Assembly: GCA_947165025.1 (NCBI GenBank)
Contig: CAMUYQ010000003.1
Span: forward strand, 54,747 to 118,746
Source: an uncultured Lachnospiraceae bacterium
GTDB lineage: Bacteria > Bacillota > Clostridia > Lachnospirales > Lachnospiraceae
DNA length: 64,000 nucleotides
Direction: 5' to 3'
Shown: piece by piece, positions 6,720 to 46,827 of the stretch
How positions within the stretch are numbered: the stretch's first letter is position 1
How the letters are laid out: every line of letters begins with the position of its first letter
Program-made: the position numbers and the translations under genes
The notes under the pieces: model-generated
Seen by the model: the letters and a program-made list of their open reading frames with translations, nothing else
The model's database searches: none
Told to the model about the DNA's origin: nothing

Positions 6720-6803
6720 GCAGAAATGGCGGAATTGGCAGACGCGCACGGTTCAGGTCCGTGTGAGGTAACACTCATGAGGGTTCAAGTCCCTTTTTCT
6801 GCA
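6720..6803 (+). tRNA. tRNA-Leu (anticodon CAG), long variable arm, no encoded CCA
   Basis: Hand-folded cloverleaf. Acceptor GCAGAAA/TTTCTGC; D-stem GCG/CGC with a GG loop; anticodon stem CACGG/CCGTG with loop TTCAGGT; 17-nt variable arm; T-arm GAGGG-TTCAAGT-CCCTT; discriminator A. Confidence 0.85.
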
Positions 6804-6804
6804 C
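6788..6804 (+). repeat. att core copy 1 (AGTCCCTTTTTCTGCAC), 3' end of tRNA-Leu
   Basis: The same 17-mer recurs at 34529-34545 and 46617-46633 (identical) and at 44761-44777 (one mismatch), all in direct orientation. Confidence 0.8.
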
Positions 6805-6808
6805 TTAA

Positions 6809-6840
6809 TAGCATCTGATTTCATCAGGTGCTATTTTGTT
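6809..6840 (+). terminator. Intrinsic terminator after tRNA-Leu (supplied by the inserted element)
   Basis: Stem TAGCATCTGAT / ATCAGGTGCTA (one G-T pair), 3-nt loop, then TTTTGTT. Confidence 0.6.
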
Positions 6841-6924
6841 GCCTAAAAACGCTGTAACGGCGCGGGTTTAAAGGCTATCACTATGTTCGACATACGTCGT
6901 CTCTTTTTGTCTGATTTCGACAGT

Positions 6925-6982
6925 TTTCCCCCATCGATGGGGGAAAAAATGGGGGAAAAATTGGGGGAAAAATTGGGGGATA
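6925..6982 (+). repeat. GGGGGAAAA array (candidate arm-type recombinase sites), left end of segment 1
   Basis: Perfect palindrome TTTTCCCCC-ATCGAT-GGGGGAAAA, followed by three more GGGGGAAAA-like copies at a 12-bp period. A related array lies at 34455-34492. Confidence 0.5.
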
Positions 6983-6994
6983 AGACATGCTTCT

Positions 6995-7064
6995 TGCATT
7001 TCACGTCAAAAAAAGTGCGTTTCACGTATAATATATAATTATAAGTGGCAATCTTTCCGAAAAT
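6995..7064 (+). promoter_or_regulatory. Class-1 LytTR-type operator plus promoter of the RR/HK operon
   Basis: TGCATTTCACG (6995-7005) and TGCGTTTCACG (7016-7026), starting 21 bp apart. A TCCGAAAA box lies 42 bp after the proximal repeat; a TATAAT at 7027 is an alternative -10. Confidence 0.6.
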
Positions 7065-7099
7065 TAGAACGACATATTGGATTTAGAAGGAAGTCATAA

Positions 7100-7852
7100 A
7101 TGGATCATAAAATGAAGATCGCCATATGCGATGATGAAAAGCCCATAAGGGACTATATAGAAAAATGCGTGCGTGAAGTAAAGGCAGATGTTGAAGTTGT
7201 TCAATATCCGGATGCTTCAGAAATGGTTGCGGCAAGTTTTGATGCAGATATACTATTCCTGGATATCCAGATGCCGGGTATGGACGGGATGAAAGCAGCT
7301 CGGATACTTCGGACTATGGGTAACAAAACTATCATAGTTTTTGTTACTGCTGTTGAGGAGTATGTATTCCAAGCGTTTGATGTTGGGGCGGTGCAATACA
7401 TAGTAAAGCCGTTTGACAGAAACAAACTTATAGATACGATCAAAAAGACGATAGCTCTTGCCGAAGAGAGAAACAGCATAGATGCTGCCCTTTCAGATAT
7501 GAATGAGTCAAATGAAGCTAAAAGATCTATAACGATCAAGTCTGATGGCGTTAACAGACGGGTTATATTGACGGAAATAATGTATGCTGAAGTGTTTGAA
7601 CATCGCATAATACTCCATATGAATGATAAGGAGTGTATTAACTATTACGGGAAGATGTCTGATCTTGAAATGGTTGCCGGAAAAGACTTTTATCGGGTGC
7701 ACCGGGCGTATCTGATCAATCTTGCGTATGTTAAGTCATATGATTCGAAGAGCGTTTCGATTTCAGGAGAGGAGATCCCCGTGGCTCGGGGAAAATATCA
7801 GGAACTTGTAAAAGCATACTTGTCATACTACACACGTAAGGAGCATTTATGA
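7100..7852 (+). CDS. LytTR-family response regulator (REC + LytTR DNA-binding domain)
   Basis: REC motifs ICDDE, FLDIQMPGMDG, VTA, VKPF; C-terminal LytTR signature FYRVHRAYLINLAYV. Confidence 0.9.
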   Translation: MDHKMKIAICDDEKPIRDYIEKCVREVKADVEVVQYPDASEMVAASFDADILFLDIQMPGMDGMKAARILRTMGNKTIIVFVTAVEEYVFQAFDVGAVQYIVKPFDRNKLIDTIKKTIALAEERNSIDAALSDMNESNEAKRSITIKSDGVNRRVILTEIMYAEVFEHRIILHMNDKECINYYGKMSDLEMVAGKDFYRVHRAYLINLAYVKSYDSKSVSISGEEIPVARGKYQELVKAYLSYYTRKEHL

Positions 7853-9255
7853 TCGACTATATTGTTGCCAATTTTGCGTCATTCGCTGATGCTTTTACTC
7901 ATTGTCTGGTAGTCATATATATAATCTGTGTGTCTTTTCTGTTATCAGTCTGGATAAAACCGTTTGTTCAAATCCGCAGGGCGTCATCTCTTACCGCGAT
8001 CATATATTTCATTTTCAGATTTATATACTATTTGATACCTGTAGATAGTGATTTTATCAGGGGGATTGCGTTTGGGATCATACCCGTAGTATTCCTTGTT
8101 TCATGGCTTTTGGATAATAAAAGGAATCCGGTCCAGAAACTGTTCCTTTCAATTCTCTATTATCTGATAAGCTGGCTGACATATGAGATTTCAGTGGAGA
8201 TCGGTCTTTTTGAAAGAGATATCATGTACAGATTTGAATGGTATCATTCGGATGCCAATGCCATTGCGATCGAGTTTATCATATGGAATTTGATCGAATA
8301 TGCTTTTGCGGTAGTTATTCTGTATATTTCAGTGCGCCTTATTCAGAAGGCATATATAAGAAAAATGGAAGAATTGTCATGGAAAGAACTGTTGATGCTG
8401 CTAGCCCCGTTCTGGACTATTCTTTTGGTAAAACCAATTATGTTGGCGTATTTCACTCTCTGGATGGATGGTATAGCAAATGGGAGTATAAATGAAAACA
8501 TACCGTCAAGCATTTATCGCCTGGTGTTCTGTGTTCTGTCGCTACTGTCTGTAATTATCATTATTACGCTGTATCAGAGGATCAAAGAGGCCACGGATGA
8601 TAAATATGCAAGACAGTCCCTTGAGAATCAGATCGAGGATATCCGGCGACATATGGGGCAGATAGAGGATATGTATGAAAAGATGAGAGCGATGCGGCAT
8701 GACATGGGCAATCATATGGCTGTGATAGAGGGCCTTGCAGATAAGGGAGAGAAGGATGCCCTGAGTGAGTATATCGGACAGTGGAAAAAGAATTATGATG
8801 AGTCAGGAACACTGGTTAAGACCGGAAATCCGATCATCGATGTTGCAATTTCGGAGTTTGCCGCAAGATTTAAAGAGTCTGACATACCGTTTGAACAGTC
8901 ATTTCAGTATCCCGAACAGCTTACGATCAATCCATTCGATCTGTGTGTTGTGGTAACAAATGCGCTTCAGAATGCATATGAAGCATCTGTAAACACGAAA
9001 ACACCCTCAGTATCACTGACATCTGTTGTCCGTGATCAAACGTTTATCATCAGTCTGAGAAACCATACAGACAACAAAGTGTATATAAATTTCGAAGAAG
9101 ATATACCGGTTTCGTCAAAAAAGGAAGACGGTCATGGGTACGGACTAAAGAATATAAGGACAATCGCCCGTAAGTACAAGGGTGATATCGAAATACGTCA
9201 AGAAGTTGAAAAAGACGGGTATATGTTTGTTCTGAACGTCATGTTTATTGGCTGA
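7849..9255 (+). CDS. AgrC/HPK10-like membrane sensor histidine kinase (GHKL)
   Basis: About six N-terminal hydrophobic helices; H-box MRHDMGNHM; N-box NALQNAYEA; G-box GHGYGLKNI; start overlaps the RR stop (ATGA). Confidence 0.85.
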   Translation: MIDYIVANFASFADAFTHCLVVIYIICVSFLLSVWIKPFVQIRRASSLTAIIYFIFRFIYYLIPVDSDFIRGIAFGIIPVVFLVSWLLDNKRNPVQKLFLSILYYLISWLTYEISVEIGLFERDIMYRFEWYHSDANAIAIEFIIWNLIEYAFAVVILYISVRLIQKAYIRKMEELSWKELLMLLAPFWTILLVKPIMLAYFTLWMDGIANGSINENIPSSIYRLVFCVLSLLSVIIIITLYQRIKEATDDKYARQSLENQIEDIRRHMGQIEDMYEKMRAMRHDMGNHMAVIEGLADKGEKDALSEYIGQWKKNYDESGTLVKTGNPIIDVAISEFAARFKESDIPFEQSFQYPEQLTINPFDLCVVVTNALQNAYEASVNTKTPSVSLTSVVRDQTFIISLRNHTDNKVYINFEEDIPVSSKKEDGHGYGLKNIRTIARKYKGDIEIRQEVEKDGYMFVLNVMFIG

Positions 9256-9429: not shown

Positions 9430-9574
9430 AACGATTAGATACAGCATCAAATGTGTCAAGTTCGCAGAACTTGACATGTAGCGTCGGCTCTTCGACGAAG
9501 TCGAATCAGGATGAGCCGACGTTCTCGGGTTGCAAGGAAACGGATTTCATAAGAAGAACAGGAGGTTCAGGAAG
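9406..9574 (+). promoter_or_regulatory. Inverted repeat around the putative -10, plus a multi-hairpin GGA-rich 5' leader for the first cluster gene
   Basis: 11-bp inverted repeat TTTGATGCTGT/ACAGCATCAAA (9406-9416 / 9441-9451). Hairpin 9454-9476 (10 bp). Nested hairpin 9482-9521 with unpaired TCAGGAT. Further GGA motifs run up to the SD AGGAGG. Confidence 0.5.
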
Positions 9575-10351
9575 ATGTCAACAATAAGACAAACAGCAGG
9601 CAGTAATTATTTTGATGAGACCTATGGCGGAGGTAGTTCAGGCTATTCCAATGATTTTCTGTCAGGGTTAAGTGTAAATACCAACAGTAATGGCGGCGGT
9701 TCATTCGATCTGGCGGATTATGCCATGATCAAGAACGGATCATACGGCAAGCTTATGAAGGCGTACTACGGACAGGAAAAAGCACAGAAGGCCGTAGAAT
9801 CCAAGGAGAGCACTTCCAAGCTTACACAGATGGCCGGTAATGCCGGAGGAATGGCAAATGCAGCAAAAGCCCTGATGGATGATTCATTATGGCAGAAGAA
9901 GACCATAACGGAGAAGGACGAAAAGACCGGAGAGGAAACGACTAAAGAAGATTATGACTGGAAGGCCATCACAAAGGCTGTTAAGGGATTCATCGAAAAC
10001 TATAACAACACAGTGGCTGGTGCAGGTGAATCCGATACAAAGGGTGTGTTGAGGAATGCTTCCTTCATGGTCAAGACAACGGCGGCATACAAGAAAACAC
10101 TTGAAAAGGCCGGCATCACGATCACAAGCGGAAATAAGCTCGAACTTAACGAGGAAGACCTTAAGAATGCGGACATTTCAACGCTTAAGACACTGTTTAC
10201 GGGTTACAACTCTTTTGCCGACAAGATGGCGACAAAGGGTAACACGATAGCAAACGAAGCTGCAAGTGCCGGCGGAACATATACGAGCAATGGAACGTAT
10301 TCCAAAGCACTGTCACAGATAGTATCGACCAAGATCGATACCAAAGAATAA
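9575..10351 (+). CDS. Short FliD (flagellar cap, HAP2)-like protein
   Basis: Start at ATG 9575 behind SD AGGAGG (the track ORF starts at an upstream TTG). By eye, FIENYNNTV, SLWQKK, GVLRNAS and LEKAGITITSGNKLELNEEDLKNADISTLKTLFTG resemble the Firmicute FliD motifs FVDxYN, LWEEKAK, GLLRND and GITT...GKLxxDExKL...LF. No signal peptide. Confidence 0.45.
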   Translation: MSTIRQTAGSNYFDETYGGGSSGYSNDFLSGLSVNTNSNGGGSFDLADYAMIKNGSYGKLMKAYYGQEKAQKAVESKESTSKLTQMAGNAGGMANAAKALMDDSLWQKKTITEKDEKTGEETTKEDYDWKAITKAVKGFIENYNNTVAGAGESDTKGVLRNASFMVKTTAAYKKTLEKAGITITSGNKLELNEEDLKNADISTLKTLFTGYNSFADKMATKGNTIANEAASAGGTYTSNGTYSKALSQIVSTKIDTKE

Positions 10352-10396
10352 CAAGGATGTTAACGATAATCACGGAAGATTAAGGAGGATTAGACC

Positions 10397-11044
10397 ATGT
10401 CAATGAATGTAGGAACAGATTATACGAATTACAAAACCGGATACACTAACACAGAAAATCAGAAAAAGGATGTCGATATTTCCGAAAAGACTGCAGATCA
10501 GGGCAAGACTGCGTATGTCAAGGAAGGTGTTGTTTATGATAAGTCCGGAGAAAAAGTAGACAACTCAACATATTCGATCAATAAGATGAGCGCAACTGAC
10601 AGGGCTGCGATCGTCGATCAGCTGAAGGAAGATGCAAGGCAGAGGGAACAGCAGCTTGTAAGCATCGTGCACAGAACAATAGCTGATCAGGCCGGAGCAT
10701 ATGGAAAAGCTACCGGAAATGATATCTGGACACTCCTTTCTGGCGGAAAGGTTACTGTAACTGCAGCCGAAAAGGCACAGGCACAGAGAGATATCAGTGA
10801 AGACGGGTATTACGGTGTTAAGCAGACATCCCAGAGATTGTTTGACTTTGCCTGTGCGCTTGCCGGGGATGACGTGGATAAGATGAAAGAAATGCAGAAG
10901 GCCATGGAGAAGGGTTTCAAGCTTGCTACAAAATCATGGGGTAAGGAACTTCCGGGCATATGCGGAGAAACATTTGATGCGGCTAACAAACTGTTTGAGG
11001 AATATTACAGGTCAAAAGATCCTGGAGCAGCATTGTCAGAATAG
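10397..11044 (+). CDS. Hypothetical protein (cluster gene 2)
   Basis: SD AAGGAGGA 6 nt upstream; conserved-looking C-terminal helical segment GYYGVKQTSQRLFDFACALAGDD...EKGFKLATKSWGKELPGI; no TM helix or signal peptide. Confidence 0.7.
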   Translation: MSMNVGTDYTNYKTGYTNTENQKKDVDISEKTADQGKTAYVKEGVVYDKSGEKVDNSTYSINKMSATDRAAIVDQLKEDARQREQQLVSIVHRTIADQAGAYGKATGNDIWTLLSGGKVTVTAAEKAQAQRDISEDGYYGVKQTSQRLFDFACALAGDDVDKMKEMQKAMEKGFKLATKSWGKELPGICGETFDAANKLFEEYYRSKDPGAALSE

Positions 11045-11148
11045 GTGGCGTAAAGTTTTCATAGAAAACTTTGCGGCACGTTGGCCACGACTTCCACGCA
11101 GTGGAATTGTTATGTCGTGGCTCTCAAGAGTAGGAGAGGACTAAAGCC

Positions 11149-11736
11149 ATGAACATAACCATGAAAGGTGCCGGCCTTCTCGGAATGGGTAATCCCGGTC
11201 TTAAAAGTACACAGGACCGTCTGGACAGAATGGTCAAAAGGGATAATAAAATAGCGTTCTTTGAGCAGCAGAAAGAGAATCTGAAGACTATGAAGACGGA
11301 TTCGCTTGAAGATATCTCAAGAAAACTGGAAATGCTTCATGGTTATGATGATCAGATCGCGCTTGCAAAGGTTGAGTTCAATAACAGTCAGGTTTTCCAT
11401 ATGCTTGATGAAGCAAGGGAACTTGGCGAGAAGATTGCTGAAGCAGCCGAGAAGAATGCTCCTAAGACTCCAGAAGAAAGACGCGAGGATATGATCGAGG
11501 AGGTTACAGGAGTAGATATGGACGGTGGAATACTTGGAGAAGTGATGGACGAACTCGAGGATATCACGGAAGAGATGACGGAGAAAGCCGCGGAAGAGCT
11601 TGAAGAAATGACAGAGGAGACTCTTTCGGAGCAGGATCTGAAACAGGCATTGTATCAGGAACCTTTAAGCACTGAGGATCCTGTGGAAGATGATCTGTTG
11701 CAGGATAAGTATAAACGGATCGATTACCGGGTATAG
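11149..11736 (+). CDS. Hypothetical acidic coiled-coil-like protein (cluster gene 3)
   Basis: Complete ORF with SD GGAGAGGA; E/D-rich C-terminal half; structured upstream intergenic region (hairpins within 11050-11130). Confidence 0.65.
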   Translation: MNITMKGAGLLGMGNPGLKSTQDRLDRMVKRDNKIAFFEQQKENLKTMKTDSLEDISRKLEMLHGYDDQIALAKVEFNNSQVFHMLDEARELGEKIAEAAEKNAPKTPEERREDMIEEVTGVDMDGGILGEVMDELEDITEEMTEKAAEELEEMTEETLSEQDLKQALYQEPLSTEDPVEDDLLQDKYKRIDYRV

Positions 11737-11778
11737 GAAACGGATTTCCTATCATAATAGTCAAAGGAGGACGAAATC

Positions 11779-12327
11779 ATGGCATTATCAGGTATCATGA
11801 CAACATCGCTGTTGTCGGCAAATAATTCAATGAAGATCGCAAGAGTACAACAGGGCGCCAAGAACCAGATGGACGGACACGCCGGTGTGCTTGATGCAGA
11901 GATAAAGCTAGACAGCGCCCGGGGCGGGGATGTTAAGAAAAAACAGGAAGAGCTTGAGGAGACAAAGAAAAAGGCTTCCGAACTTGAAGAATCCACTATG
12001 AATACGCTTTCGGCTACATCCGATGATCTGAAGAAGGCGGCTAAAGACGATCTTGAAGCCAGAAGGGCAGAGAAGGCTGAAGAGAAGAAGAAAGCCGAAA
12101 AAGCAGCAGAGAAAAAGAGGGTGGAGAAGAAGGCTACCGAAGAGAGGATCGAGAAGATCGGAGAAGCAGCAACATCTGAAACCGCAGAGATATCTGATGG
12201 TGATCATAGTGTATCGGTAGAGGGAACATTGTTTGAAGGCGCCACGATCAATGTCGTTGTTGACGGTGTAACTCCAAGCACAGGCGCAACCGGAACAATA
12301 GGCGTATCGATGGACGAAAAAGCCTGA
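11779..12327 (+). CDS. Hypothetical K/E-rich protein with weak flagellin-N-terminus-like start (cluster gene 4)
   Basis: SD AAGGAGGA. N-terminus SLLSANNSMKIARVQQG...DGHAGVLDAEIK loosely recalls flagellin LSANN...DDAAGLAISEKM; the rest is K/E-rich low complexity. Confidence 0.6.
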   Translation: MALSGIMTTSLLSANNSMKIARVQQGAKNQMDGHAGVLDAEIKLDSARGGDVKKKQEELEETKKKASELEESTMNTLSATSDDLKKAAKDDLEARRAEKAEEKKKAEKAAEKKRVEKKATEERIEKIGEAATSETAEISDGDHSVSVEGTLFEGATINVVVDGVTPSTGATGTIGVSMDEKA

Positions 12328-12341
12328 CAGAGGGTTATAAT

Positions 12342-12923
12342 ATGAAAATCACGGGATCATACAATCAATATGAGCTGAATAATATGGAATCAACAGGCAG
12401 TAAGCCCAAGGCAGAAAAGGAATACGCCAACTATCTGATGAAGAAGTATCCGTGCCTGTCTCCAGGAAAGAATTCTGTTGTATCTGTAACAAGTGGATTA
12501 TTGCGTAAAGCCATGTCCGATGAGAAGACCGGTGAGTGGCTTGAGAGAGAATTATCAAAGGCTCCCGATTATATCAAACAGGCTCAACAGTCTGCGATTG
12601 CCCATGGTTCAACCCTGAAGTTCTGTTCTATAGAGTTCGGAGAGGAGTATTCCACGATGTGTACGCTTACTGTAACAGACGGCGGAGGAACTGATCCGGA
12701 CATTGATGAATGGCTTGAGAAGGTTAAGAAGGAAAGGGCTGAGCGAAAAGCCGAGGAAAAGAAACAGGAAGAAGAACGCGCAGAGGTTCGCCGACAGGAA
12801 ACAGAAACATATAAGATGGAACTAAAGGGCAGGGATCTTGAAGATCTGACAAGACAGTTCGCCATGAATCTGACAACACAAGCCTCAACGCTTTCGAACG
12901 GTTCAATTGATATAAAAGCGTGA
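12342..12923 (+). CDS. Hypothetical protein, member of an in-cluster paralogue family (cluster gene 5)
   Basis: Shares the pattern VS[VIL][ST]xxG...M..D.....W ... [IF]xFGE with the products of 16684-17607 and 17619-18254. Confidence 0.65.
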   Translation: MKITGSYNQYELNNMESTGSKPKAEKEYANYLMKKYPCLSPGKNSVVSVTSGLLRKAMSDEKTGEWLERELSKAPDYIKQAQQSAIAHGSTLKFCSIEFGEEYSTMCTLTVTDGGGTDPDIDEWLEKVKKERAERKAEEKKQEEERAEVRRQETETYKMELKGRDLEDLTRQFAMNLTTQASTLSNGSIDIKA

Positions 12924-12934
12924 TCATTTCAATG

Positions 12935-13035
12935 TAAACAATTATCTTCAAAATGCCGATATATATTTAAGATAAGTGATAATGTCGCCTGATCAGAAAA
13001 GGAGTTCGGATCAGTATTGTCAAGGAGGATGACAC
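12935..13035 (+). promoter_or_regulatory. Sigma-D/sigma-28-type promoter plus hag-like leader (GGA hairpin + GGA-containing SD)
   Basis: TAAA (12935-12938), 16-nt spacer, GCCGATAT (12955-12962). Hairpin 12989-13014 presents AAGGAG in its loop. SD AAGGAGGA at 13023-13030. Confidence 0.6.
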
Positions 13036-13689
13036 ATGAGCGGGATAAATGCGGTTAATAACGGTAAATCCGGTGAATTTCTACAGGGAATTCAGACGAC
13101 AATAAAGGAAAAACTGAATAATGCTATTGAAGAAGGAGCATTCTCCAACGCATTTGATGAAGGAGTAGCTGCAACCCTTTCAATATCGTCATCCGGGATC
13201 GCTCAGGCTAGTCGGGCAGAAAGAGAAGATATCATTCGACAATCTATAGTCCAGCTGGATGGCGGGTATAGAAAGTTTAATCTTACAGATGAAGAAGCCT
13301 GTATTCTCAAGAGTTTCCGGTTGGAAGAATACTATGATATCCGGAATAGAATGAAGAATGAGGATATTAACGCCTATAATGATCTTTTAAAGTCTGAAGA
13401 GATCGCCGACAAGAACTCCGACCCGAGCGCAAAGTTTAAAGTATATTCAAAAGCATATAACTGGGCTTACGGGGACGTTTTTGACAGAATCCATAAGGAA
13501 AATCCGGAAGTTGATATTTATGTAAGATCACCGGGGACGGAGGAAAATCATAACTATCAAATGAGAAATAACAGAACCTCACTTATTATTTCCACGGATG
13601 AAATAAAACTCCTTCAGTCAAGAAATAACAACGATAAGAAAGCACAGGAAGAACTGTGGAATAGGATCCTGGAAAAGATCCGATCATGA
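13036..13689 (+). CDS. Hypothetical protein (cluster gene 6)
   Basis: Complete 217-aa ORF with a strong SD; no recognisable motif. Confidence 0.65.
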   Translation: MSGINAVNNGKSGEFLQGIQTTIKEKLNNAIEEGAFSNAFDEGVAATLSISSSGIAQASRAEREDIIRQSIVQLDGGYRKFNLTDEEACILKSFRLEEYYDIRNRMKNEDINAYNDLLKSEEIADKNSDPSAKFKVYSKAYNWAYGDVFDRIHKENPEVDIYVRSPGTEENHNYQMRNNRTSLIISTDEIKLLQSRNNNDKKAQEELWNRILEKIRS

Positions 13690-13707
13690 GTTTGATGAAA
13701 TGACAAG

Positions 13708-13787
13708 TCGGGATATATTAAAGGAAAGCATTAATATCGCTTGATCCGAAAAGGAGTTCGGATTCATATGATCAAGGAGGATATCAC
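13708..13787 (+). promoter_or_regulatory. Second copy of the hag-like leader (GGA hexaloop hairpin + SD)
   Basis: Hairpin ATCCGAA-AAGGAG-TTCGGAT (13744-13763). SD AAGGAGGA at 13774-13781. A degenerate TCGGGATAT box at 13708 has no convincing -35. Confidence 0.5.
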
Positions 13788-14756
13788 ATGAAGGTCAATA
13801 ACACATCCTTTTTTATGAATGATGGCGTATTTGGAACATCGAATACATCGGAGCGTTCAAACAATAATCCATCCAAATCATCCGGAATATCGATAAACGG
13901 CAGTTCTTTTGCCATGCAGAATGATCCCATTGCGGCCAAGCGGGAGGAAGCCCGTAAGAAAGCAATGAAGGTCATCGGGGATGCGTTTGCTAATGACCGG
14001 AAGATTGATGAAGACCTTGATGCAAGAAGCGAGCATATCCGAAAGCTGAAAACTGTTCAGAATGACGCAAATAAAGTGATCAACGAAATAGAATCAGACC
14101 GTGCTGCTCTTCGAGATGAGTATGGTATTGATACGGACAGTCAGGAAGAGAAAGATCTCCAGCTTCTTGAGAAGGAATTCAGGGCACGCCAAAAAGGTTC
14201 TGATGTTCAACTTACAAAGGAGGATATGGAGGAGATCGCTAAGATTAAGGCAAAGGGCCTTACGGAATATCAGAGCAGGTCGATGGAAATGCTTGATTAT
14301 GAGAAACCATATCTTGATGCAGCATATGAGGCTAAAGCCGGTATAGAAGAGGAAAATCTAACCATTGCAGCAATAAAGCGTGAACTTCCGAAGAATGACG
14401 CAATGTTGAAAGCCCAGGATAAAGCCGATGCCATAGAAGATGCTGCATCAAAAGAGATCATGGGGATGCTTGTCGATGAAGCGAAGGAACAAATCGACGA
14501 AGAGGCAAAGGAGGCCGAAGAAAAGGCCAAGGAGAAACAGGAGAAGGAAGAAGAACTCCAGGAGAAGATCGATGCCGCAAGGGAAAGACGTAAGGAAGAG
14601 GAAGAACTCACTGAAGACATCGTGGAATCTGCCCAGGATCTTAATGTTACAACAGCTAACATAAATGATGCACAGAAGGACATTAAGGATATGATGAACA
14701 AACTGGCACTCGTAGAAGAAGATATGAAGGGTGCCGCTGTGGATCAAAAATCATAA
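13788..14756 (+). CDS. Hypothetical coiled-coil-like protein (cluster gene 7)
   Basis: S/N-rich N-terminus, then a long K/E/D-rich helical-looking region; 322 aa. Confidence 0.65.
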   Translation: MKVNNTSFFMNDGVFGTSNTSERSNNNPSKSSGISINGSSFAMQNDPIAAKREEARKKAMKVIGDAFANDRKIDEDLDARSEHIRKLKTVQNDANKVINEIESDRAALRDEYGIDTDSQEEKDLQLLEKEFRARQKGSDVQLTKEDMEEIAKIKAKGLTEYQSRSMEMLDYEKPYLDAAYEAKAGIEEENLTIAAIKRELPKNDAMLKAQDKADAIEDAASKEIMGMLVDEAKEQIDEEAKEAEEKAKEKQEKEEELQEKIDAARERRKEEEELTEDIVESAQDLNVTTANINDAQKDIKDMMNKLALVEEDMKGAAVDQKS

Positions 14757-39446: not shown

Positions 39447-39590
39447 TGGTGTATTATATTGGAAGATAAATTGCCACGGAGGAGACAGAGTTTTAAAAGC
39501 CCTGTCTCCTTTTTGAAATAATACATTGACGAATATCTATGTATATGCTATTATCAACACATAGATAAACATCTATATAAGGAGGAGATT

Positions 39591-39893
39591 ATGGCCAAAT
39601 TAGACGAAGTGCTGATATGTAAGGCTCTTGGAGATCCCAACAGAATGGAAATCGTTAAGATGCTTTCTGATCAGGAGAAGTGCGGATGCAAGCTTCTTGA
39701 AAAGTTCGATATTACACAGCCGACTCTTTCTCATCACATGAAGATACTGGTAGATTCGGGACTGGTTAACGACAGAAAAGAAGGCAAGTGGCACTACTAT
39801 TCAATAAACACGGACATCATGAAAGAATTCTGTGGATTTATTAAAACTCTCTGTAATGAAACCACCGGCAAATGCTGTAAGGGGAAAGCATGA
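39591..39893 (+). CDS. ArsR/SmtB-family metalloregulator
   Basis: wHTH ITQPTLSHHMKILVDSGLV, Cys pair EKCGCKLL at the ELCVCDL position, Cys-rich tail CNETTGKCCKG. Confidence 0.85.
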   Translation: MAKLDEVLICKALGDPNRMEIVKMLSDQEKCGCKLLEKFDITQPTLSHHMKILVDSGLVNDRKEGKWHYYSINTDIMKEFCGFIKTLCNETTGKCCKGKA

Positions 39894-40891
39894 TGTGGGA
39901 CTTTATTCAGACACAGATCCTGGGGATGAAGTGGCTGAACATTTTGATCGGGGAACTCCTGTCTGCATTAGGATTGGATATAGATAGCAGGATAGGCTCC
40001 GGCATACACTTTTTTATCTATGATGTTATAAAGATCACGATCCTTCTTTGTTTGCTGATCTTTGTGATCTCATATATCCAGAGTTTCTTTCCACCGGAGC
40101 GTAGCAGGAAGATAATGGGCAGATTTCACGGAATCGGAGCAAATATCGTAGGAGCCTTGCTTGGAACCGTGACACCATTCTGCTCGTGCTCATCCATCCC
40201 GATATTTATGGGATTTACGAGTGCCGGATTACCGCTTGGAGTAACATTCTCTTTTTTGATCTCATCACCGATGGTGGATCTGGGGAGCCTCGTACTGCTT
40301 ATGAGCATCTTTGGGGCAAGGATAGCCATCGTTTATGTTGTGATGGGACTTATGATCGCTGTTGCAGGTGGTACATTGATCGAGAGACTTCATATGGAAG
40401 ATCAGGTCGCGGATTTTATCAGGAATGCAAACAGCAGCGTTGAAATAGAAACTCCGAGCCTCCCTGTTAAAGAGCGTTTAATATACGCAAAGGACCAAGT
40501 AGTATCTACATTTAAGAAAGTGTTTCCATACATTCTGATAGGAGTCGGGATTGGGGCTGTGATACATAACTGGATTCCGGAAAGCTGGATCAGGGCAGTG
40601 CTTGGGGGAAGAAATCCCTTTGGAGTGATACTTGCAACAATCCTGGGTATTCCGATGTATGCTGATATCTTTGGTGTGATCCCTATAGCCGAGGCACTCT
40701 TGTCCAAAGGAGCTTTGCTTGGTACGATCTTAAGCTTTATGATGGCAGTGACTACACTCAGTCTTCCGTCGCTCATTATGCTGAAGAAAGCTATCAAGCC
40801 AAAACTGTTAGGAACATTTATAGCCATCTGTACAGTGGGTATCATCATTGTCGGGTATGGTTTCAACTTATTTCAATATTTATTCATCTGA
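39890..40891 (+). CDS. Permease of the DUF318/ArsP-like family
   Basis: About 8-10 TM helices; conserved TPFCSCSSIP motif; start overlaps the arsR-like stop (ATGA). Confidence 0.7.
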   Translation: MMWDFIQTQILGMKWLNILIGELLSALGLDIDSRIGSGIHFFIYDVIKITILLCLLIFVISYIQSFFPPERSRKIMGRFHGIGANIVGALLGTVTPFCSCSSIPIFMGFTSAGLPLGVTFSFLISSPMVDLGSLVLLMSIFGARIAIVYVVMGLMIAVAGGTLIERLHMEDQVADFIRNANSSVEIETPSLPVKERLIYAKDQVVSTFKKVFPYILIGVGIGAVIHNWIPESWIRAVLGGRNPFGVILATILGIPMYADIFGVIPIAEALLSKGALLGTILSFMMAVTTLSLPSLIMLKKAIKPKLLGTFIAICTVGIIIVGYGFNLFQYLFI

Positions 40892-40905
40892 AGGAGGATA
40901 TGGTC

Positions 40906-41133
40906 ATGAATATCAAGGTATTAGGCGGAGGATGCAAAAGCTGTGAGGCTCTCCTTGCATCTGCAAAAGAAGCAGTAGCGAAAAAAGGGATCGATGCGGA
41001 GATAGAGTATATCACGGATATGGAAAAGATCATGGGTTTCGGAGTGATGAGTATGCCGGCTCTTATGATCGACGGAAAAGTTGTTTCAGCCGGAAAGGTT
41101 CTTAAGGCTAAGGAAGTTGAAAAATTCTTATAG
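40906..41133 (+). CDS. Thioredoxin-fold redox-active disulfide protein (CxxC)
   Basis: MNIKVLGGGCKSCE N-terminal CxxC; ~76 aa. This small protein commonly follows such permeases. Confidence 0.7.
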   Translation: MNIKVLGGGCKSCEALLASAKEAVAKKGIDAEIEYITDMEKIMGFGVMSMPALMIDGKVVSAGKVLKAKEVEKFL

Positions 41134-41147
41134 GAGATGTCAGGGAT

Positions 41148-41675
41148 ATGGATAATATGGAAAGAGAACTGTTTATAAGGGACGCTGATCCCGAAGATGC
41201 TAAAAAACTGGTGGAGATATATTCATATTATGTTCTGAATACCGCTGTTTCTTTTGAATATGAAGTTCCGTCAGTTGCAGATTTTGAAAACAGGATCAAG
41301 ACAACAAAAGAAAAATATCCATATATGGTGTGCTTATTAAAAGACAGGATCGTCGGCTATGCGTATGCGGGACCATATAGTTCTAGAGAAGCTTATAACT
41401 GGACAGCAACAACATCTATCTATGTTGATAAGGATTATCGCAGACAGGGTATCGGTTCGTTGCTGTACAAAGAGCTGGAAAAAAGGCTTAAAGAACAGGG
41501 CATAGTCAACCTGCTTGCAGGAGCCGCCTATAGTGATGAAGAGGATGAATATCTCACACATGACAGCTATAAGTTTCATATACGATCGGGATATACAAAA
41601 GCAGCTCACATGAAGACTATAGGTAAGAAATTTGACAGATGGTATGATCTGTTATGGATGCAGAAAAAACTATAG
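41148..41675 (+). CDS. GNAT N-acetyltransferase of the phosphinothricin-acetyltransferase (PAT/ArsN1-like) type
   Basis: IRDADPEDA...SFEYEVPS...RRQGIGSLLYKELE acetyl-CoA motif; 175 aa. Confidence 0.7.
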   Translation: MDNMERELFIRDADPEDAKKLVEIYSYYVLNTAVSFEYEVPSVADFENRIKTTKEKYPYMVCLLKDRIVGYAYAGPYSSREAYNWTATTSIYVDKDYRRQGIGSLLYKELEKRLKEQGIVNLLAGAAYSDEEDEYLTHDSYKFHIRSGYTKAAHMKTIGKKFDRWYDLLWMQKKL

Positions 41676-41693
41676 TAAGCGGAGGGAAGATCT

Positions 41694-42116
41694 ATGACAC
41701 ACAAAGAAAAAGCAATGAAGATATTTTATGAAAAATTCAATTGCTCGCAGGCAGTTCTTGGAGCATACGCGGATGATTATGGGCTGACGGTAGATCAGGC
41801 TATGAAAGTGGCAGCATGTTTCAGCGGGGGCGTGAGAAAAGGTGAAGTGTGTGGTGCTGTATCCGGGGCAATCATGGTGATCGGGTTGAAATACGGAGAC
41901 GGCCCCGACTATAAAGCAACTGCTTATCCCAAGGCTGCTGAGTTTATGGAAAGATTCAAAGAAAAGAATGCTTCATATATCTGCAAGGATATACTTGGCT
42001 GTGACATATCCTCCGAAGCGGGGATGCTCTATGCCCGGGAGAATGGACTTTTTAAGGATATTTGTCCGAGAATGGTAGAATCCGCGGTTGATATTCTGGA
42101 AGATATGGAAATATAA
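41694..42116 (+). CDS. C_GCAxxG_C_C family redox-like protein
   Basis: FNCSQAVLGAY, GEVCGAVSGA, ICKDILGC, CPRMV, the eponymous Cys pattern. Confidence 0.75.
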   Translation: MTHKEKAMKIFYEKFNCSQAVLGAYADDYGLTVDQAMKVAACFSGGVRKGEVCGAVSGAIMVIGLKYGDGPDYKATAYPKAAEFMERFKEKNASYICKDILGCDISSEAGMLYARENGLFKDICPRMVESAVDILEDMEI

Positions 42117-42165
42117 GCAATTGGTACAGAGGAGAAATACGGAATTTTGATGGAGGAAAAGCAAG

Positions 42166-42291
42166 GTGAATGAATTTAATGAATGTGTTCATGAAGTTTT
42201 TTCTGCAGCCGGTGATATTATCATAAAATCAATGATGGGCGGATATCTTGTATACCTCAATGGTAAACTGATCGAAGTTACTTGCGGGTAG
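42166..42291 (+). pseudogene. Possible truncated TfoX-N-like gene remnant
   Basis: 41-aa GTG ORF ending ...KSMMGGYLVYLNGKLIEVTCG recalls the MFGGYGLYxxGKxF core of the TfoX N-terminal domain. Too short to be intact. Confidence 0.25.
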
Positions 42292-42335
42292 GATAAGATT
42301 AGCCGTGGGAAGATTATCTTGTATAATGCACATTT

Positions 42336-42367
42336 AAGCTTCGGTTAAATCCCGAAGCTTTTTCTTT
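42336..42367 (+). terminator. Intrinsic terminator
   Basis: AAGCTTCGG / CCGAAGCTT 9-bp stem, 7-nt loop, T-rich tail. Confidence 0.7.
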
Positions 42368-42376
42368 GGAATTGTG

Positions 42377-42430
42377 TTGACAAAAAATATGTAATATATT
42401 ACATTGTTTCGTGTAGGTAATATATTACAT
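42377..42430 (+). promoter_or_regulatory. Promoter with two palindromic MarR-type operator sites
   Basis: TTGACA at 42377-42382. Perfect palindrome TGTAATATATTACA at 42390-42403 overlaps the -10 region. Second palindrome GTAATATATTAC at 42417-42428. Confidence 0.6.
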
Positions 42431-42449
42431 AATATAAAAAGGAGCTCAC

Positions 42450-42929
42450 ATGAATTACGATGAAGTAATGAATATCGAAAAAGTAACGTTTGGAGATATG
42501 CCACCACAGCCTTTTTTACTCGGATTACTCAGTGCATTTGATAACAGATATCAGGCTGCAGCCGATGCATATTTCAAGGAGATTACCTGGAAACAATTCT
42601 TTGCAATAATCTGTATCAACCTATGCAAGAAACCTCCGACGTTAAATGAGCTTTCTGATGTAATGGGAAGTTCTCATCAGAATGTGAAGCAGATTTTACT
42701 TAAGCTTGAGAAAAAGGGGTTTGTCTCTGCAGTTCCTGATGATAAAGACAAGCGAAAGCAACGGATCTTTGTCACAGATAAATGCAGGACTTTTTTGGAA
42801 CAGAATGACAATAACGGCCAACAGAGCCAATATGTCATCGGAAGAATATTTGATGGAATCGATGAAAAGAGCCTTCAAACTACCATACAAACTATCATGA
42901 AAATGGAAAGGAATTTGAGCGAGTTATGA
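42450..42929 (+). CDS. MarR-family transcriptional regulator
   Basis: wHTH LNELSDVMGSSHQNVKQILLKLEKKGFV...DKRKQRIFVT. Confidence 0.8.
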   Translation: MNYDEVMNIEKVTFGDMPPQPFLLGLLSAFDNRYQAAADAYFKEITWKQFFAIICINLCKKPPTLNELSDVMGSSHQNVKQILLKLEKKGFVSAVPDDKDKRKQRIFVTDKCRTFLEQNDNNGQQSQYVIGRIFDGIDEKSLQTTIQTIMKMERNLSEL

Positions 42930-43477
42930 AAACACTGATCATTTACACATCACAGACAGGATTTACTAAAAGATATGCAGAGTGGATTGCAGAGAAAACG
43001 GGCGGAGATTTACTTGAACTTAAGGATGCTCAGAAGAAGAGTGATGATTACTTCAAGGATTTTGATGCAATCTGCTATGGCGGTTGGCTTATGGCAGCGA
43101 ATGTTGTTAAGGTTAAATGGTTCTTTGAAAAGGCCAATAACTGGAAGAATAAACGTCTTGTTTTGTTCTGTGTAGGAGGCAGCCCTAATGACAATCCTGA
43201 TATAGATACTTTTCTTCAGAATGCCCTTACTAAGGAGCAGCATAAGTATATTAAAATATTCTACTGTCAGGGCGGTTTTAACTATGAAAAGATGAAGACA
43301 CCATCCAGACTTGCAATGAAGATGTTTGTATCAACTCTCAGGAATAAAAAAGATGCTACTGAGAAAGAAAAGGTCATGGCCGAGAAGATGGCTTCATCCT
43401 ATGATATTTCTGATGTCAAATATATAGAACCTATAGTGGCTTATCTGTTGGAGAAAGATAATGAAAAGGCTGTTTAA
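42926..43477 (+). CDS. Flavodoxin-domain protein
   Basis: MKTLIIYTSQTGFTKRYAEWI FMN-phosphate loop; overlaps the marR stop. Confidence 0.75.
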   Translation: MKTLIIYTSQTGFTKRYAEWIAEKTGGDLLELKDAQKKSDDYFKDFDAICYGGWLMAANVVKVKWFFEKANNWKNKRLVLFCVGGSPNDNPDIDTFLQNALTKEQHKYIKIFYCQGGFNYEKMKTPSRLAMKMFVSTLRNKKDATEKEKVMAEKMASSYDISDVKYIEPIVAYLLEKDNEKAV

Positions 43478-43853
43478 AACCCTGCTTGCAATAGTAATCG
43501 TAATTGCGGTGATCCTCATATCTGCAGTCGCAATTGTTAGTGTCAGGATGAGTGGACAGGTCAAGGCTTTCGACAAATCAGGAATTGATCTGTCCCATGT
43601 TGCTGATGGTGTATATAATGGTCATAGTGAGACGGATCTGGTCAAGGTTGATGTTCAAGTAACAGTAGCTGATGGGAGAATAGAAGATATTGAAATCCTA
43701 AAGCACGAGTGTGGCAAGGGGCATCCTGCTGATGTGATTATTAGTGATATGATCAAAGATAATACAGTAGAGGTTGATGCGGTTTCGGGTGCAACGATGT
43801 CCAGTGAAGTAATAAAAGACGCAGTCAGGGATGCGTTAAGATCGGGGCTTTAA
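43461..43853 (+). CDS. Membrane-anchored FMN-binding domain protein
   Basis: N-terminal TM helix; C-terminal VDAVSGATMSS motif (the FMN attachment Ser/Thr context). Confidence 0.7.
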   Translation: MKRLFKTLLAIVIVIAVILISAVAIVSVRMSGQVKAFDKSGIDLSHVADGVYNGHSETDLVKVDVQVTVADGRIEDIEILKHECGKGHPADVIISDMIKDNTVEVDAVSGATMSSEVIKDAVRDALRSGL

Positions 43854-44084
43854 CTTCAGTATAAACGGTTAAGCAAATCGCAGTTTGTCGAGATGAAGCG
43901 ATAGTATGTTATCTTGGATAATTACACAAAGGGGATTCAGTCCAAGCAGGACTGAAGTTCATATTTTTATTCTGGAAGTCTTACTTCATACAGTTTTATG
44001 GACGAGCATGAGCACATATTCAAGCAATTGGAGTTGTGATATAATAATCTTGAACAAGTAGTTTATGATTATAGGAGATCCTTC

Positions 44085-44352
44085 ATGCCTGCTTTATCAA
44101 TGTTTTATGGAATAATAAGTGCGTATGCAGAGCGAAAAAGGCGGTAAACACAATAAACCGCACATTCATGCAATTTACGGAGAAAATGAGATTGTAATTG
44201 CATTGGATGGTGAAGTGCTCGAAGGAAACTTTCCGACAAAGCAGTTTAAGATGCTTGAAGGTTGGATGGCGATTCATGAAGATGAGTTAAAAGCAAATTG
44301 GCAAATGCTGAGTGATGGTGAAGGATATTTTAAGATAGAGCCTTTAAAATAG
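44085..44352 (+). pseudogene. DUF4160-family gene with an apparent +1 frameshift near 44117
   Basis: ATG 44085 encodes MPALSMFYGII, the typical DUF4160 N-terminus, then hits a stop. The family continues in the next frame (RMQSEKGGKHNKPHIHAIYG...). Confidence 0.55.
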
Positions 44353-44364
44353 GAGTGATTATTC

Positions 44365-44607
44365 ATGTTAAGACCTACTGCAACAAAGGTTTTACCTCAA
44401 CAGGATTATCAAATCAGTGTGACATTCGATAATGGTGAAAACAGGTTATTTGATGTCAAACCGTACATTAAGGGATCGTGGTACGGGATGTTGAAAGATG
44501 AAAACTATTTCCGCCGTGTCAGTACAGACGGATTTACGGTTGTATGGCCTGAAGGGCAGGATATCTGTCCGGATGAATTGTATGAGTGCTCGCAAATCAT
44601 AGATTAA
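44365..44607 (+). CDS. DUF2442-family protein
   Basis: VTFDNGENRLFDVKPY...VVWPEGQDICPDELY, the typical DUF2442 pattern, paired with the DUF4160 gene. Confidence 0.7.
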   Translation: MLRPTATKVLPQQDYQISVTFDNGENRLFDVKPYIKGSWYGMLKDENYFRRVSTDGFTVVWPEGQDICPDELYECSQIID

Positions 44608-44760
44608 TTATGGCGGAGCAGGTTTATTTACCTCCTTCAAGCCCAATCCCCATTACCTGACAAAAACCCGGTAAGATTCATTATCTGCCGGTTTTTTTGT
44701 TGTAGTCAGACCTGTAGTCAAAACCCCGCAAATGGCGTAAATACAGGGCTTTACAATAAG

Positions 44761-44777
44761 AGTTCCTTTTTCTGCAC
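44761..44777 (+). repeat. att core copy 3 (AGTTCCTTTTTCTGCAC, one mismatch)
   Basis: Direct repeat of the tRNA-Leu 3' end, followed by TATCTATTTGTAG, which resembles the native downstream TAAGATTTGTACG. Confidence 0.7.
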
Positions 44778-44810
44778 TATCTATTTGTAGTCTTAAAAAT
44801 CGTCATTTTC

Positions 44811-44842
44811 GGGGTCAACTGTGGTCAAAAATGTGGTCAAAA
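44811..44842 (+). repeat. G(G/T)GGTCAA(A/C) triple direct repeat next to att copy 3
   Basis: GGTCAA at 44813, 44823 and 44835 (10-12 bp period). Confidence 0.5.
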
Positions 44843-45055
44843 CGTAGAACAAGCAGTATATGGACTGTTCTCCGCGCGAATACAGGAGAAAAGCCGCTGC
44901 CTTGGAATAACTGAGAGAAAACGACCGGGTCAAAAGGCCGCCGTGACAGACTTTTTGGCAGATATGATCAATTTGATTCGAAAAGTGATATAATGCACAT
45001 ATGGTTGTCGATCATATCGAAGAACAAATAATAAAACATACATACAGCGAAAACA

Positions 45056-46516
45056 ATGGAAAAGAATGAAAAAGCAGAAAGCATAGACCATGGTGTAGGA
45101 CAGTTTGCCGCAGAGGCGAGTGCTGCGGTGGATGATGTGTCGCTTTTGTTTGATGTCAAAGATTATCCGGAGGAGATGCATGAACTTATAATCGAGTGCA
45201 ACCGGAGGATCGATGAGGCAAACAGTAAATATCGGATTGCCAAGTTCCGAGAGGATATGTTCGCCAAAGGAATGAAAGCGGGCATGTATTTTTGCACGTT
45301 TGATCGAGATGAGAACATGTTGAGCTTTGAGTTCAATGAAGAGACCAGACAGATGCTTGGCTACGATGGACTTGAGGATCTGCCTAACGAATTTGAAAGT
45401 TGGGTGAAGACTCTTGTCCCGGAAGAGCGCGACGCAATCGTAAAACTGTTCTGGGATTCGGTCCGAATACACCGGGATCTGCCGGATATCACTCATGCCA
45501 CATATCGTATGCAGAAGAAGGACGGCAGCATCATTTGGGTTACGGGAGCAGGAAGATTTATCAGACGTCCCGATGATGGCTCTTTGGAGATATACATGGG
45601 CTGCTATCGCGATATCACTGCACAGCAGGAACGGGAGGAATACTTAAAGATCATTGAGGCTTTAGGCAAGGTCTTCAATTTCTCCTTGTTTATAGATGTA
45701 ACCGATATGAGTTACCGCATGATCAGTACCAATGAGTATGTGGAGACAGTTCCGAAGGATCCGGACGCCATTGTCTTTCTTAGAAATATTGTTGCCGCAT
45801 CAGTGGCTGAGAGCTTCCGCCCAATGTTATATGACTGGCTTGACAAGGATGCCATTCTTGCTTCTATTGAAGAGCATGGATCGACAAGCATGGAGTTTTA
45901 CAGTGAGAGCGCACATAGGTGGTTTGACGGGATCTTTATGGTCGGTGACCGGAACGAAGACGGAAGCATCGCACACATCGTTTACGGCTGCCAGGATACA
46001 ACTGATGCAAAACTCCAGAGTCTGGCGCAGCAGAAAAAGATTTCGGAATTTGAGACTGAGATATATATAGATTCTCTTTCGCAGATCCACAACAGAAAGT
46101 TCCTGGATGAAAAACTCGTATATGAACCATGCCAGGCTGTTGTTATGGCCGATATCGATGTGTTTAAGGATATCAACGACACCGTCGGTCACCAGGGAGG
46201 TGACGAAGCGATCCAAAAAGTAGCCAAGCTGCTTGAACAGTCGGTTCGTAAGGATGATGTGGTAATTCGCTACGGCGGAGATGAGTTCATGATAGTGTTC
46301 TTCGCTATAACAAGAGAAGATCTGGAAGGAAAACTATCATTCTTAAAGTCTGAGCTTGGAAAGATCACCCTGGAAAACAATCCCGAGATCAGAATAACCA
46401 TGAGCTTCGGTGCCGCATTCGGAACGGAGCTTGTTAATAATCTGATAGGAACTGCTGATAAGGCACTTTATGAATCCAAGAAAATAAGGGATACATATAC
46501 AGTGATAGAAATCTGA
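45056..46516 (+). CDS. PAS-domain diguanylate cyclase (GGDEF) with I-site
   Basis: RYGGDEFMIVF active site preceded by RKDD (RxxD) five residues upstream; PAS-like regions in the N-terminal 300 aa. Confidence 0.85.
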   Translation: MEKNEKAESIDHGVGQFAAEASAAVDDVSLLFDVKDYPEEMHELIIECNRRIDEANSKYRIAKFREDMFAKGMKAGMYFCTFDRDENMLSFEFNEETRQMLGYDGLEDLPNEFESWVKTLVPEERDAIVKLFWDSVRIHRDLPDITHATYRMQKKDGSIIWVTGAGRFIRRPDDGSLEIYMGCYRDITAQQEREEYLKIIEALGKVFNFSLFIDVTDMSYRMISTNEYVETVPKDPDAIVFLRNIVAASVAESFRPMLYDWLDKDAILASIEEHGSTSMEFYSESAHRWFDGIFMVGDRNEDGSIAHIVYGCQDTTDAKLQSLAQQKKISEFETEIYIDSLSQIHNRKFLDEKLVYEPCQAVVMADIDVFKDINDTVGHQGGDEAIQKVAKLLEQSVRKDDVVIRYGGDEFMIVFFAITREDLEGKLSFLKSELGKITLENNPEIRITMSFGAAFGTELVNNLIGTADKALYESKKIRDTYTVIEI

Positions 46517-46616
46517 CCGACTTTCGGGAACTGTTTAAATAAGAGGATAGAGATTCAGAAGGGAAAATCGAAGGGAAAAGCTAGTAAGGGATTGCCAGCA
46601 CAATATCACAGGCATC

Positions 46617-46827
46617 AGTCCCTTTTTCTGCACTAAGATTTGTACGTATTTATCAGTAACCGTCAAAAAGAGCGGAAACGCTGATAAATACGTACTTTTT
46701 TTATCCCACACATCGTTCGTCATTTTGCACAACACAAGATATTGATAGATGAATATTATAGTTTTTCTTCCTTTTTACATTTGTGTTGCTCATGATAGAA
46801 TAATTCAAATCGCAATTTGTCGAGATG
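46617..46827 (+). repeat. att core copy 4 plus the native tRNA-downstream region (partner of 34529-34733)
   Basis: See 34529-34733. Also contains the 22-mer CAAATCGCAATTTGTCGAGATG (46806-46827), which recurs at 43874-43895. Confidence 0.85.
46642..46702 (+). terminator. Probable ancestral tRNA-Leu terminator
   Basis: 15-bp stem GTACGTATTTATCAG / CTGATAAATACGTAC followed by TTTTTTT. Confidence 0.65.

Follow-up and report, generated by a model that had tools for sequence, protein, structure and literature searches.

The 64,000-nucleotide stretch examined here (the window; contig CAMUYQ010000003.1 of an uncultured Lachnospiraceae bacterium, positions 54,747 to 118,746) carries a tRNA-Leu(CAG) gene with at least four segments stacked behind it. 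We consider it probable (roughly 80%) that this gene is a hot spot for a superfamily of tyrosine-integrase elements and that the array was built by successive integration and decay. Under this proposal, related tyrosine integrases would recombine a 17- to 18-bp core at the 3′ end of the tRNA, and the layout of attP would be fixed, with one flank bearing two arm repeats that are phased by 12 bp and end 37 to 38 nucleotides (nt) short of the core, and the opposite flank bearing a hairpin and then three or four repeats (at about +135 to +171). The repeat word would vary by subfamily, and the N-terminal domain of the integrase would vary along with it.

A pattern search of the window found the 17-mer core AGTCCCTTTTTCTGCAC exactly at 6788 to 6804 (copy 1), 34529 to 34545 (copy 2), and 46617 to 46633 (copy 4) and with a single mismatch (reading AGTTCC...) at 44761 to 44777 (copy 3), which bears out the four copies, three identical and one with a mismatch, that an earlier sequence-only reading of the window had placed there. 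Because T follows all four copies, the identity extends to 18 bp. No further copy was found in the window at ≤3 mismatches (chance expectation, 0.01 to 0.14), and the full 2.7-Mb assembly contains the same four copies and none outside. Copy 1 forms the last 17 nt of the tRNA-Leu(CAG) gene (6720 to 6804, plus strand; ARAGORN, Rfam RF00005 at 50.6 bits, and pattern search), which is the integration target, and constitutes the attL of segment 1. ARAGORN and Rfam each show this gene as the sole tRNA of the window. The tRNA is intact only at copy 1, as had been claimed, and the Rfam scan of the window returned nothing apart from it.

The junctions around these copies share a single architecture. 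Five attR-type junctions were compared, namely, copies 2, 3, and 4 and those of two metagenome loci (L028 and L065). In each, the right arm consists of two direct repeats that start at −58 to −60 and −46 to −48, in a 12-bp phase and with a gap of 37 to 38 nt to the core, and this geometry is constant over all five junctions while the repeat words differ. On the plus strand of the window, the right (P) arm of segment 1 with core copy 2 (34470 to 34545) has AGGGGGAAA at 34470 and TGGGGGAAA at 34482 (38-nt gap), the right arm of segment 2 with core copy 3 (44701 to 44777) has TGTAGTCAGA at 44701 and TGTAGTCAAA at 44713 (38-nt gap), and the right-arm remnant with core copy 4 (46559 to 46633) has AAGGGAAAA at both 46559 and 46571 (37-nt gap). 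The metagenome junctions have two copies of GTGGGACAAA (L028) and two of GGGGGAAA(C/A) (L065).

The opposite, left (P′) arm is complete in segment 1 (6805 to 6983, plus strand), where three copies of GGGGGAAAA and one of GGGGGATAA stand at 6939, 6951, 6963, and 6975, i.e., at +135, +147, +159, and +171 from the core, with an inverted GGGGGAAAA ahead of them at 6924 to 6932. Segment 1 also brings its own tRNA terminator hairpin within this arm (∼6807 to 6840; −15.6 kcal/mol, z = −4.4). The three internal junctions (copies 2, 3, and 4) are all hybrid, with a right arm, the core, and a left-arm-type flank in succession, and the accretion reading is supported because every one of them has this form. 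The hybrid junctions, the conserved arm geometry, and the presence of relatives at the same tRNA elsewhere agree with the earlier suggestion of successive integrations at the tRNA 3′ end. The three island segments then counted become at least four, since a remnant without a right end begins at copy 4.

The sequence downstream of the internal cores had appeared to be native to the locus. After copies 2 and 4 it consists of TA..ATTTGTA, a hairpin with a 16-bp stem, a T-run, and ATCCCACACATCGTTCGTC. The resemblance of the sequence after copies 2 to 4 to CTA..ATTTGTA was recovered, in the form TA(TC/AG)(T)ATTTGTA, and it is the native origin that did not hold, since the flank instead matches the left arm of a sister family. 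Similarly, the strong hairpin after copy 4 was confirmed (−27.7 kcal/mol, z = −7.8) and is not unique, as copy 2 is also followed by a hairpin with a U7 tract (−29.4 kcal/mol, z = −5.6); at copy 3 it is deleted. The hairpin-type flank lies directly behind the tRNA in the relatives G001, G008, G015, and G024 and in metagenome contigs, and in G035 it lies behind a second core copy ∼140 bp downstream of the tRNA. In relatives (G008, G035, G015, G001, L028, and L029) it runs into three 12-bp-phased repeats at +133 to +159 from the core, with the word TGGTAGTCAAAA in G008, L028, and L029, TGTGGTCAAAA in G015 and G035, and GGGTCAGAA in G001. Because a global alignment shows co-linearity with the segment 1 left end over the full stretch, and because its repeats occupy the positions of the segment 1 arm repeats, the flank is best interpreted as the left arm of a sister element family, left as a remnant in most of the genus. 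Such an origin removes the puzzle of a "native" flank that occurs thrice in the window. The flank behind copy 2 belongs to the G035/L028 type (91% identity) and that behind copy 4 to the G001/L029 type (92 to 93%).

Two other interpretations of these flanks were dropped. The tRNA with hairpin flank in G001, G008, G015, and G024 had been considered as an empty site, but the flank is co-linear with the segment 1 left arm and has its repeats at the same offsets; the same alignment and distance counts disposed of the ∼150-bp repeat block behind the flank as a mini-element at a second att site. No integrase was found in the 13 kb behind the tRNA of G015.

A scan of collections for the core plus flank recovered two genome contigs and three metagenome contigs, and the relatives recovered by the junction pattern are metagenome-assembled genomes of rumen Lachnospiraceae. 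Comparison with relatives for an unoccupied tRNA-Leu locus, which had been proposed as a check, yielded a bare locus in G009. There, the tRNA lies between homologues of the window genes at 832 to 1791 and 55998 to 57221, with spacers of 79 and 137 nt; the same two flanking genes are 15 kb apart in G015 and 54 kb apart in the window. The tRNA-Leu(CAG) gene is inverted relative to both conserved flanking genes in G009 (L010, 1501 to 1585) and in metagenome locus L027, so islands there would grow towards the other neighbor.

An independent array was found on a 63-kb metagenome contig, which contains, in order, a segment 1-like element (integrase 89% identical), a core, a mini segment of 140 bp, a second core, a GTGGGACA-type element (left arm first), the attR core of this element, and lastly an arm of the hairpin type bearing TGGTAGTCAAAA repeats. 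The second element of this array has its own integrase (70% identical). This independent case indicates that stacking at tRNA-Leu is recurrent. The mini segment of this array (L065, 19546 to 19690; ∼140 bp) extends from an attR core to the second core and also occurs in G035 (L063, G035:C46 ∼770 to 908), where it extends from the tRNA to the second core. It holds a stretch, GGGTTCAAGGTCTC, that resembles a tRNA T arm, and its first ∼50 nt are also found behind the tRNA in G005, to the extent read there.

By its gene content, segment 1 (∼27.7 kb; 6805 to 34528, plus strand; delimited by Pfam content, GC content, and a homologue in G004) appears to be an intact integrative mobilizable element (IME). 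It is so classed because an integrase and a relaxase are present and there is no match to VirB4, a coupling protein, or FtsK; this search for parts of a type IV secretion system covered the segment 1 open reading frames (ORFs) of ≥70 amino acids (aa) with Pfam, to which 13 of the genes remain uncharacterized. The gene order is a LytTR/GHKL pair, an uncharacterized cluster, the relaxase, a ParM-like protein, a DUF6462 protein, the integrase, and a low-GC cargo. The LytTR response regulator and GHKL kinase (7100 to 9255; Pfam) are followed by the cluster at 9530 to 22135, which includes a second LytTR regulator (14967 to 15764). The relaxase (22232 to 24625, minus strand; 797 aa) is of the MobA/VirD2 type (PF03432, E = 3.6e−18) and ∼27% identical to Firmicutes plasmid relaxases (typed as mobilizable in 547 of 607 cases); no oriT was located. 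The small DUF6462 protein (26494 to 26733, plus strand; PF20063, E = 2.6e−12) is encoded directly upstream of the tyrosine integrase (27152 to 28270, plus strand; PF00589, E = 3e−24), a placement conserved in L028, L065, and L066, and may be an excisionase. A six-frame search gave the region at 27668 to 28222 as the sole tyrosine-recombinase match of the window, and no serine recombinase was found in the window, in accordance with the claim that a single integrase gene is left. The integrase has 446 homologues at E ≤ 1e−60.

The ends of segment 1 are well defined. It is bounded by the exact 17-mers at 6788 and 34529, with arm repeats inside both ends, and homology with sister elements ends at the cores. 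In G004, another species of the genus, the same left end is joined to tRNA-Leu, with the arm layout of segment 1 (+135/+147/+159), and the left end is also found at the tRNA in G010 and G012. The element proteins of G004 are 93 to 97% identical to those of segment 1 and the integrase is 98% identical, compared with 65.7% for a neighboring core protein, which suggests that segment 1 moved between species recently. The GC content is 0.429 in the backbone of segment 1 and 0.359 in its cargo, compared with 0.47 to 0.49 in the conserved flanks, 0.40 in segment 2, and 0.41 at 46634 to 49500.

The cargo, of ∼6 kb between the integrase and attR (28343 to 34318, plus strand), is variable; it encodes a Schlafen/AlbA_2-HATPase_c_4 protein (29363 to 30784) and five proteins without a family match, including a 260-aa protein (32964 to 33746) with no Pfam match at E ≤ 0.01. 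The G004 sequence departs from the window after the integrase stop codon and has other genes in this slot, and the metagenome element in L065 (integrase 89% identical) has DUF4062, HTH-M78-DUF4411, SLFN_AlbA_2, and RnlA/RnlB there. Homology between L065 and the window returns in the final 62 nt before core copy 2 and halts at the core (attR 90% identical), which is why the segment ends can be placed with such precision. This variable slot of low GC content (28343 to 34318; 11354 to 19315 in L065) resembles a defense gene hot spot. Within the cluster at 9530 to 22135, which is flanked by LytTR regulators, DUF6033 is the only family match, the proteins are 93 to 97% identical in G004, and there are families of repeated intergenic sequences, comprising an 80-nt unit at 15831, 16582, 18322, and 20689 and pairs at 12961/13713 and 14829/18256.

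The rest of the array is degraded. No match to a recombinase, relaxase, or type IV secretion system was found in segments 2 and 3 (34546 to 46616). The left arm of segment 2 (34546 to 34754, plus strand) retains the hairpin terminator and a conserved stretch, and its arm repeats are deleted. The body of the segment (34745 to 44607, plus strand; Pfam and NCBIfam) contains no mobility gene and encodes a Vat-like acetyltransferase, a P-loop protein, three alpha/beta hydrolases, an arsR-arsP-thioredoxin-GNAT-C_GCAxxG module, MarR, a flavodoxin, an FMN-binding protein, and DUF4160/DUF2442. The gene for the Vat-like hexapeptide acetyltransferase (34745 to 35440) should not be called a streptogramin resistance gene, because its score against the NCBIfam Vat model (249.6 bits) is under the cutoff (300). 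Segment 2 has the appearance of a mosaic of recently exchanged modules, to judge from nucleotide identities: the ars module (39454 to 42120) is 98.5% identical to G170, which belongs to another genus, and 95 to 98% identical to two more genomes, so that it occurs at 95 to 99% identity in at least three other genera of the family, and 36952 to 37838 matches a fourth genus at 98.6% identity. The surroundings of the 98 to 99% identical modules in G035 and G170 showed no element genes; in G170 the context of the ars module is ordinary chromosome near parAB.

Segment 3 has a truncated left arm (44778 to 44842, plus strand), from which ∼91 nt including the hairpin are deleted and which has TGTGGTCAAAA at 44820 and 44832; in G015 and G035, the flank of tRNA-Leu matches this arm at 98% identity. 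The only gene is a PAS-GGDEF gene (45056 to 46516, plus strand). The block at 44834 to 46549 is 98.5% identical at the nucleotide level to a locus on another contig of the congener G035 and ends exactly at the start of the AAGGGAAAA arm remnant. Because the left arm is of the TGTGGTCAAAA type and the right arm is of the AAGGGAAAA type, segment 3 is interpreted as a fusion of two remnants. Behind copy 4 there follows the left arm of a fourth remnant (46634 to 46843, plus strand), again with the hairpin terminator and with the arm repeats deleted; in the left arms after both copy 2 and copy 4, the repeat block appears to have been lost by deletion between two CGTTCGTC motifs. No fifth core was found downstream of copy 4 in the window, and synteny with congeners returns only at ∼55998. 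A left arm without a further core is the state behind the tRNA in most of the genus.

Copies 2 and 4 both lie within a direct repeat of ∼235 bp, at 34519 to 34754 (34519 to 34545 plus the segment 2 left arm) and 46607 to 46843 (46607 to 46633 plus the left arm of the fourth remnant). The repeat is uneven, as its hairpin part is ∼80% identical and the next 135 bp (∼34612 to 34750 versus 46701 to 46839) are 98.5% identical. Gene conversion or homologous exchange has probably acted on it, and RecA-dependent recombination at the 135-bp block could remove the 12.1 kb that separates copies 2 and 4.

The integrase varies along with the arm word. In lambda Int and Tn916 Int, the N-terminal domain reads arm-type repeats. 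The integrases of segment 1 and L065 (P0002), which have the same arm word (GGGGGAAA in L065), are 78.6% identical over residues 10 to 51 and 90.4% identical over residues 52 to 364, whereas those of segment 1 and L028, whose arm words differ (GTGGGACAAA in L028), are 19% identical over residues 10 to 51 and 75.7% identical over residues 52 to 364. Such covariation would be expected of an N-terminal domain that reads the arm repeats. We tentatively suggest, as a possibility to which we assign less than even odds, that the superfamily, while keeping one tRNA core, may have split into five or more orthogonal combinations of an arm word with an N-terminal domain (GGGGGAAAA, GTGGGACAAA, TGGTAGTCAAAA/TGTRGTCAAAA, GGGTCAGAA, and AAGGGAAAA), which would allow elements to share the site in tandem without mutual excision; domain swapping would then be a mechanism of coresidence and escape from exclusion and not just drift. 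Distant homologues of the integrase (58 to 63% identical) belong to other small elements beside other tRNA-type cores, and the one checked in detail (L069) has the same layout of two repeats at 37 nt. With the same arm layout at other targets, these homologues were set aside as uninformative on the tRNA-Leu locus.

If each newcomer entered at the tRNA-completing copy and shoved older elements downstream, the order of the array would run from youngest to oldest. Segment 1, an intact IME with the word GGGGGAAAA, would be the most recent arrival. Segment 2, with the right-arm word TGTAGTCA, would be next, after loss of the integrase and of the left-arm sites; segment 3, in which a TGTGGTCAAAA-type left arm and a AAGGGAAAA-type right arm form a chimera around the GGDEF gene, would be older still, and the fourth remnant, reduced to its left arm, would be the oldest. 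Segment 1 probably excises by recombination between copies 1 and 2 through the integrase and the DUF6462 protein, and the excised form could then be mobilized through its relaxase by a helper conjugation system. Segments 2 and 3 retain their cores and right arms, and the segment 2 left-arm repeats are gone and the segment 3 left arm is truncated, with a word unlike that of its right arm. Segments 2 and 3 had been described as stranded remnants or as elements dependent on the segment 1 integrase in trans; trans use by segment 2 is doubtful because its right-arm word, TGTAGTCA, differs and its left-arm repeats are deleted. For copy 4, use of the segment 1 integrase in trans is conceivable, because the word AAGGGAAAA resembles GGGGGAAAA.

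Several observations weigh against this history. Simple accretion does not explain the 98.5% identical 135-bp block, which is younger than the rest of its repeat. The remnants appear to have been reshaped by deletions, since segment 2 and the fourth remnant are without left-arm repeats and segment 3 mixes arm types. Look-ups for exact matches to the Vat-like and GGDEF proteins returned no same-species genome. No transfer helper is evident in the genome, because there is no VirB4 (AAA_10) match above the cutoff and the only coupling-protein (PF02534) match is split into two pieces ∼10 kb apart on another contig (G000:C1:603023-614397). A 645-aa serine-recombinase ORF adjoins one of the PF02534 pieces, which may be parts of a gene interrupted by an inserted element.

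Among the other ways in which the repeats could have arisen, homologous (Campbell-type) recombination at the postcore repeat might have introduced or duplicated the 12.1-kb stretch from copy 2 to copy 4, with copies 3 and 4 as passengers, but we regard this as unlikely. The contrast between the 135-bp block and the adjacent hairpin part does suggest recent exchange or gene conversion, and the patchwork of segment 2, with modules nearly identical to those of other genera and a G170 context without mobile-element genes, is in line with such a route. However, copies 3 and 4 each have a complete right arm at the exact spacing of the family, as in junctions made by an integrase, so that homologous recombination may account for the young block but not for the arms.

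A somewhat less probable alternative is that copies 2 to 4 are fossil attR sites that were carried along with the chromosomal flank of a former host after aberrant excision, as in specialized transduction. The hairpin flank lies directly behind the tRNA in several congeners, and the flanks of copies 2 and 4 are of different types, as if they came from different lineages. Yet the three phased repeats at +133 to +159 occupy the left-arm positions of segment 1, in a stretch co-linear with that arm, and G009 displays the true bare flank; if the hairpin flank is element DNA, capture need not be invoked. An origin of all four copies by chance or as ancestral repeats, without any mobile-element history, is very improbable, as 0.01 matches would be expected against the four observed and as the integrase, the relaxase, the arm repeats, and the homologous elements that other species carry at this tRNA would be left unaccounted for.

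Two further sequence features lie outside the array. A motif of ∼60 nt, ACTCGCGCATGAGGATCACCTTCGGTGATGGGCGCTCGTCGTGCAGG, just upstream of the tRNA (6644 to 6703, plus strand) recurs at 58363 to 58411 (minus strand; 92% identical), at G000:C2:128982-129039, and in many congener contigs; it has no Rfam match and folds no better than shuffled sequences. In G035, a 1,271-aa ORF (L058, G035:C60; 4656 to 8471) joins radical-SAM domains (PF19864 and PF04055) with a reverse transcriptase domain (PF00078); a C39-peptidase ABC exporter and a PLD-type nuclease are encoded nearby.

The locus provides a clean and readable case of island stacking and decay at a tRNA gene in the understudied rumen Lachnospiraceae, and it corrects an easy mistake, as the apparent native flank behind the tRNA in most congeners is better read as an element arm. 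With their fixed geometry, the arms can guide annotation of the att sites of this integrase family in metagenomes, and, as arm word and N-terminal domain vary together, the family is also a case in which specificity switching can be tested.

Integration, decay to a cis-mobilizable element (CIME), and further integration at the retained att site have been described for streptococcal ICEs (integrative and conjugative elements) as well as IMEs (reviewed in PMC5704250), including ICESt1/ICESt3 and the CIMEs of Streptococcus thermophilus and the IME_Sag2603_tRNAlys composite island of S. agalactiae. Our array adds one more case of this known stacking of an IME and CIME-like remnants and is not a new kind of system. 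As in the accretion of ICESt1/ICESt3 and CIMEs, integration at the 3′ end of a gene and decay are associated with a head-to-tail array, direct core repeats, and chimeric internal att sites. Unlike in the ICESt1/ICESt3-CIME and S. agalactiae cases, the host belongs to the rumen Lachnospiraceae, the target is tRNA-Leu(CAG), and there are at least four layers. Unlike canonical CIMEs, the remnants are more decayed (left-arm sites are lost and one remnant is a chimera), and the stacked elements have different arm words. The integrase shares with lambda Int and Tn916 Int the PF00589 catalytic domain, SAM-like core-binding domains, and short direct repeats that flank the core at fixed distances, but it differs from them in the 12-bp phasing and in having two sites to one side of the core and three or four opposite, and reading of the repeats by its N terminus is suggested by covariation. 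As at the tRNA and tmRNA hot spots for islands (PMC3146451), each integration restores the 3′ end of a small RNA gene and direct repeats mark successive islands; unlike those islands, the elements described here are relaxase-encoding mobilizable elements of Firmicutes, in an array that is legible from the architecture of its arm sites.

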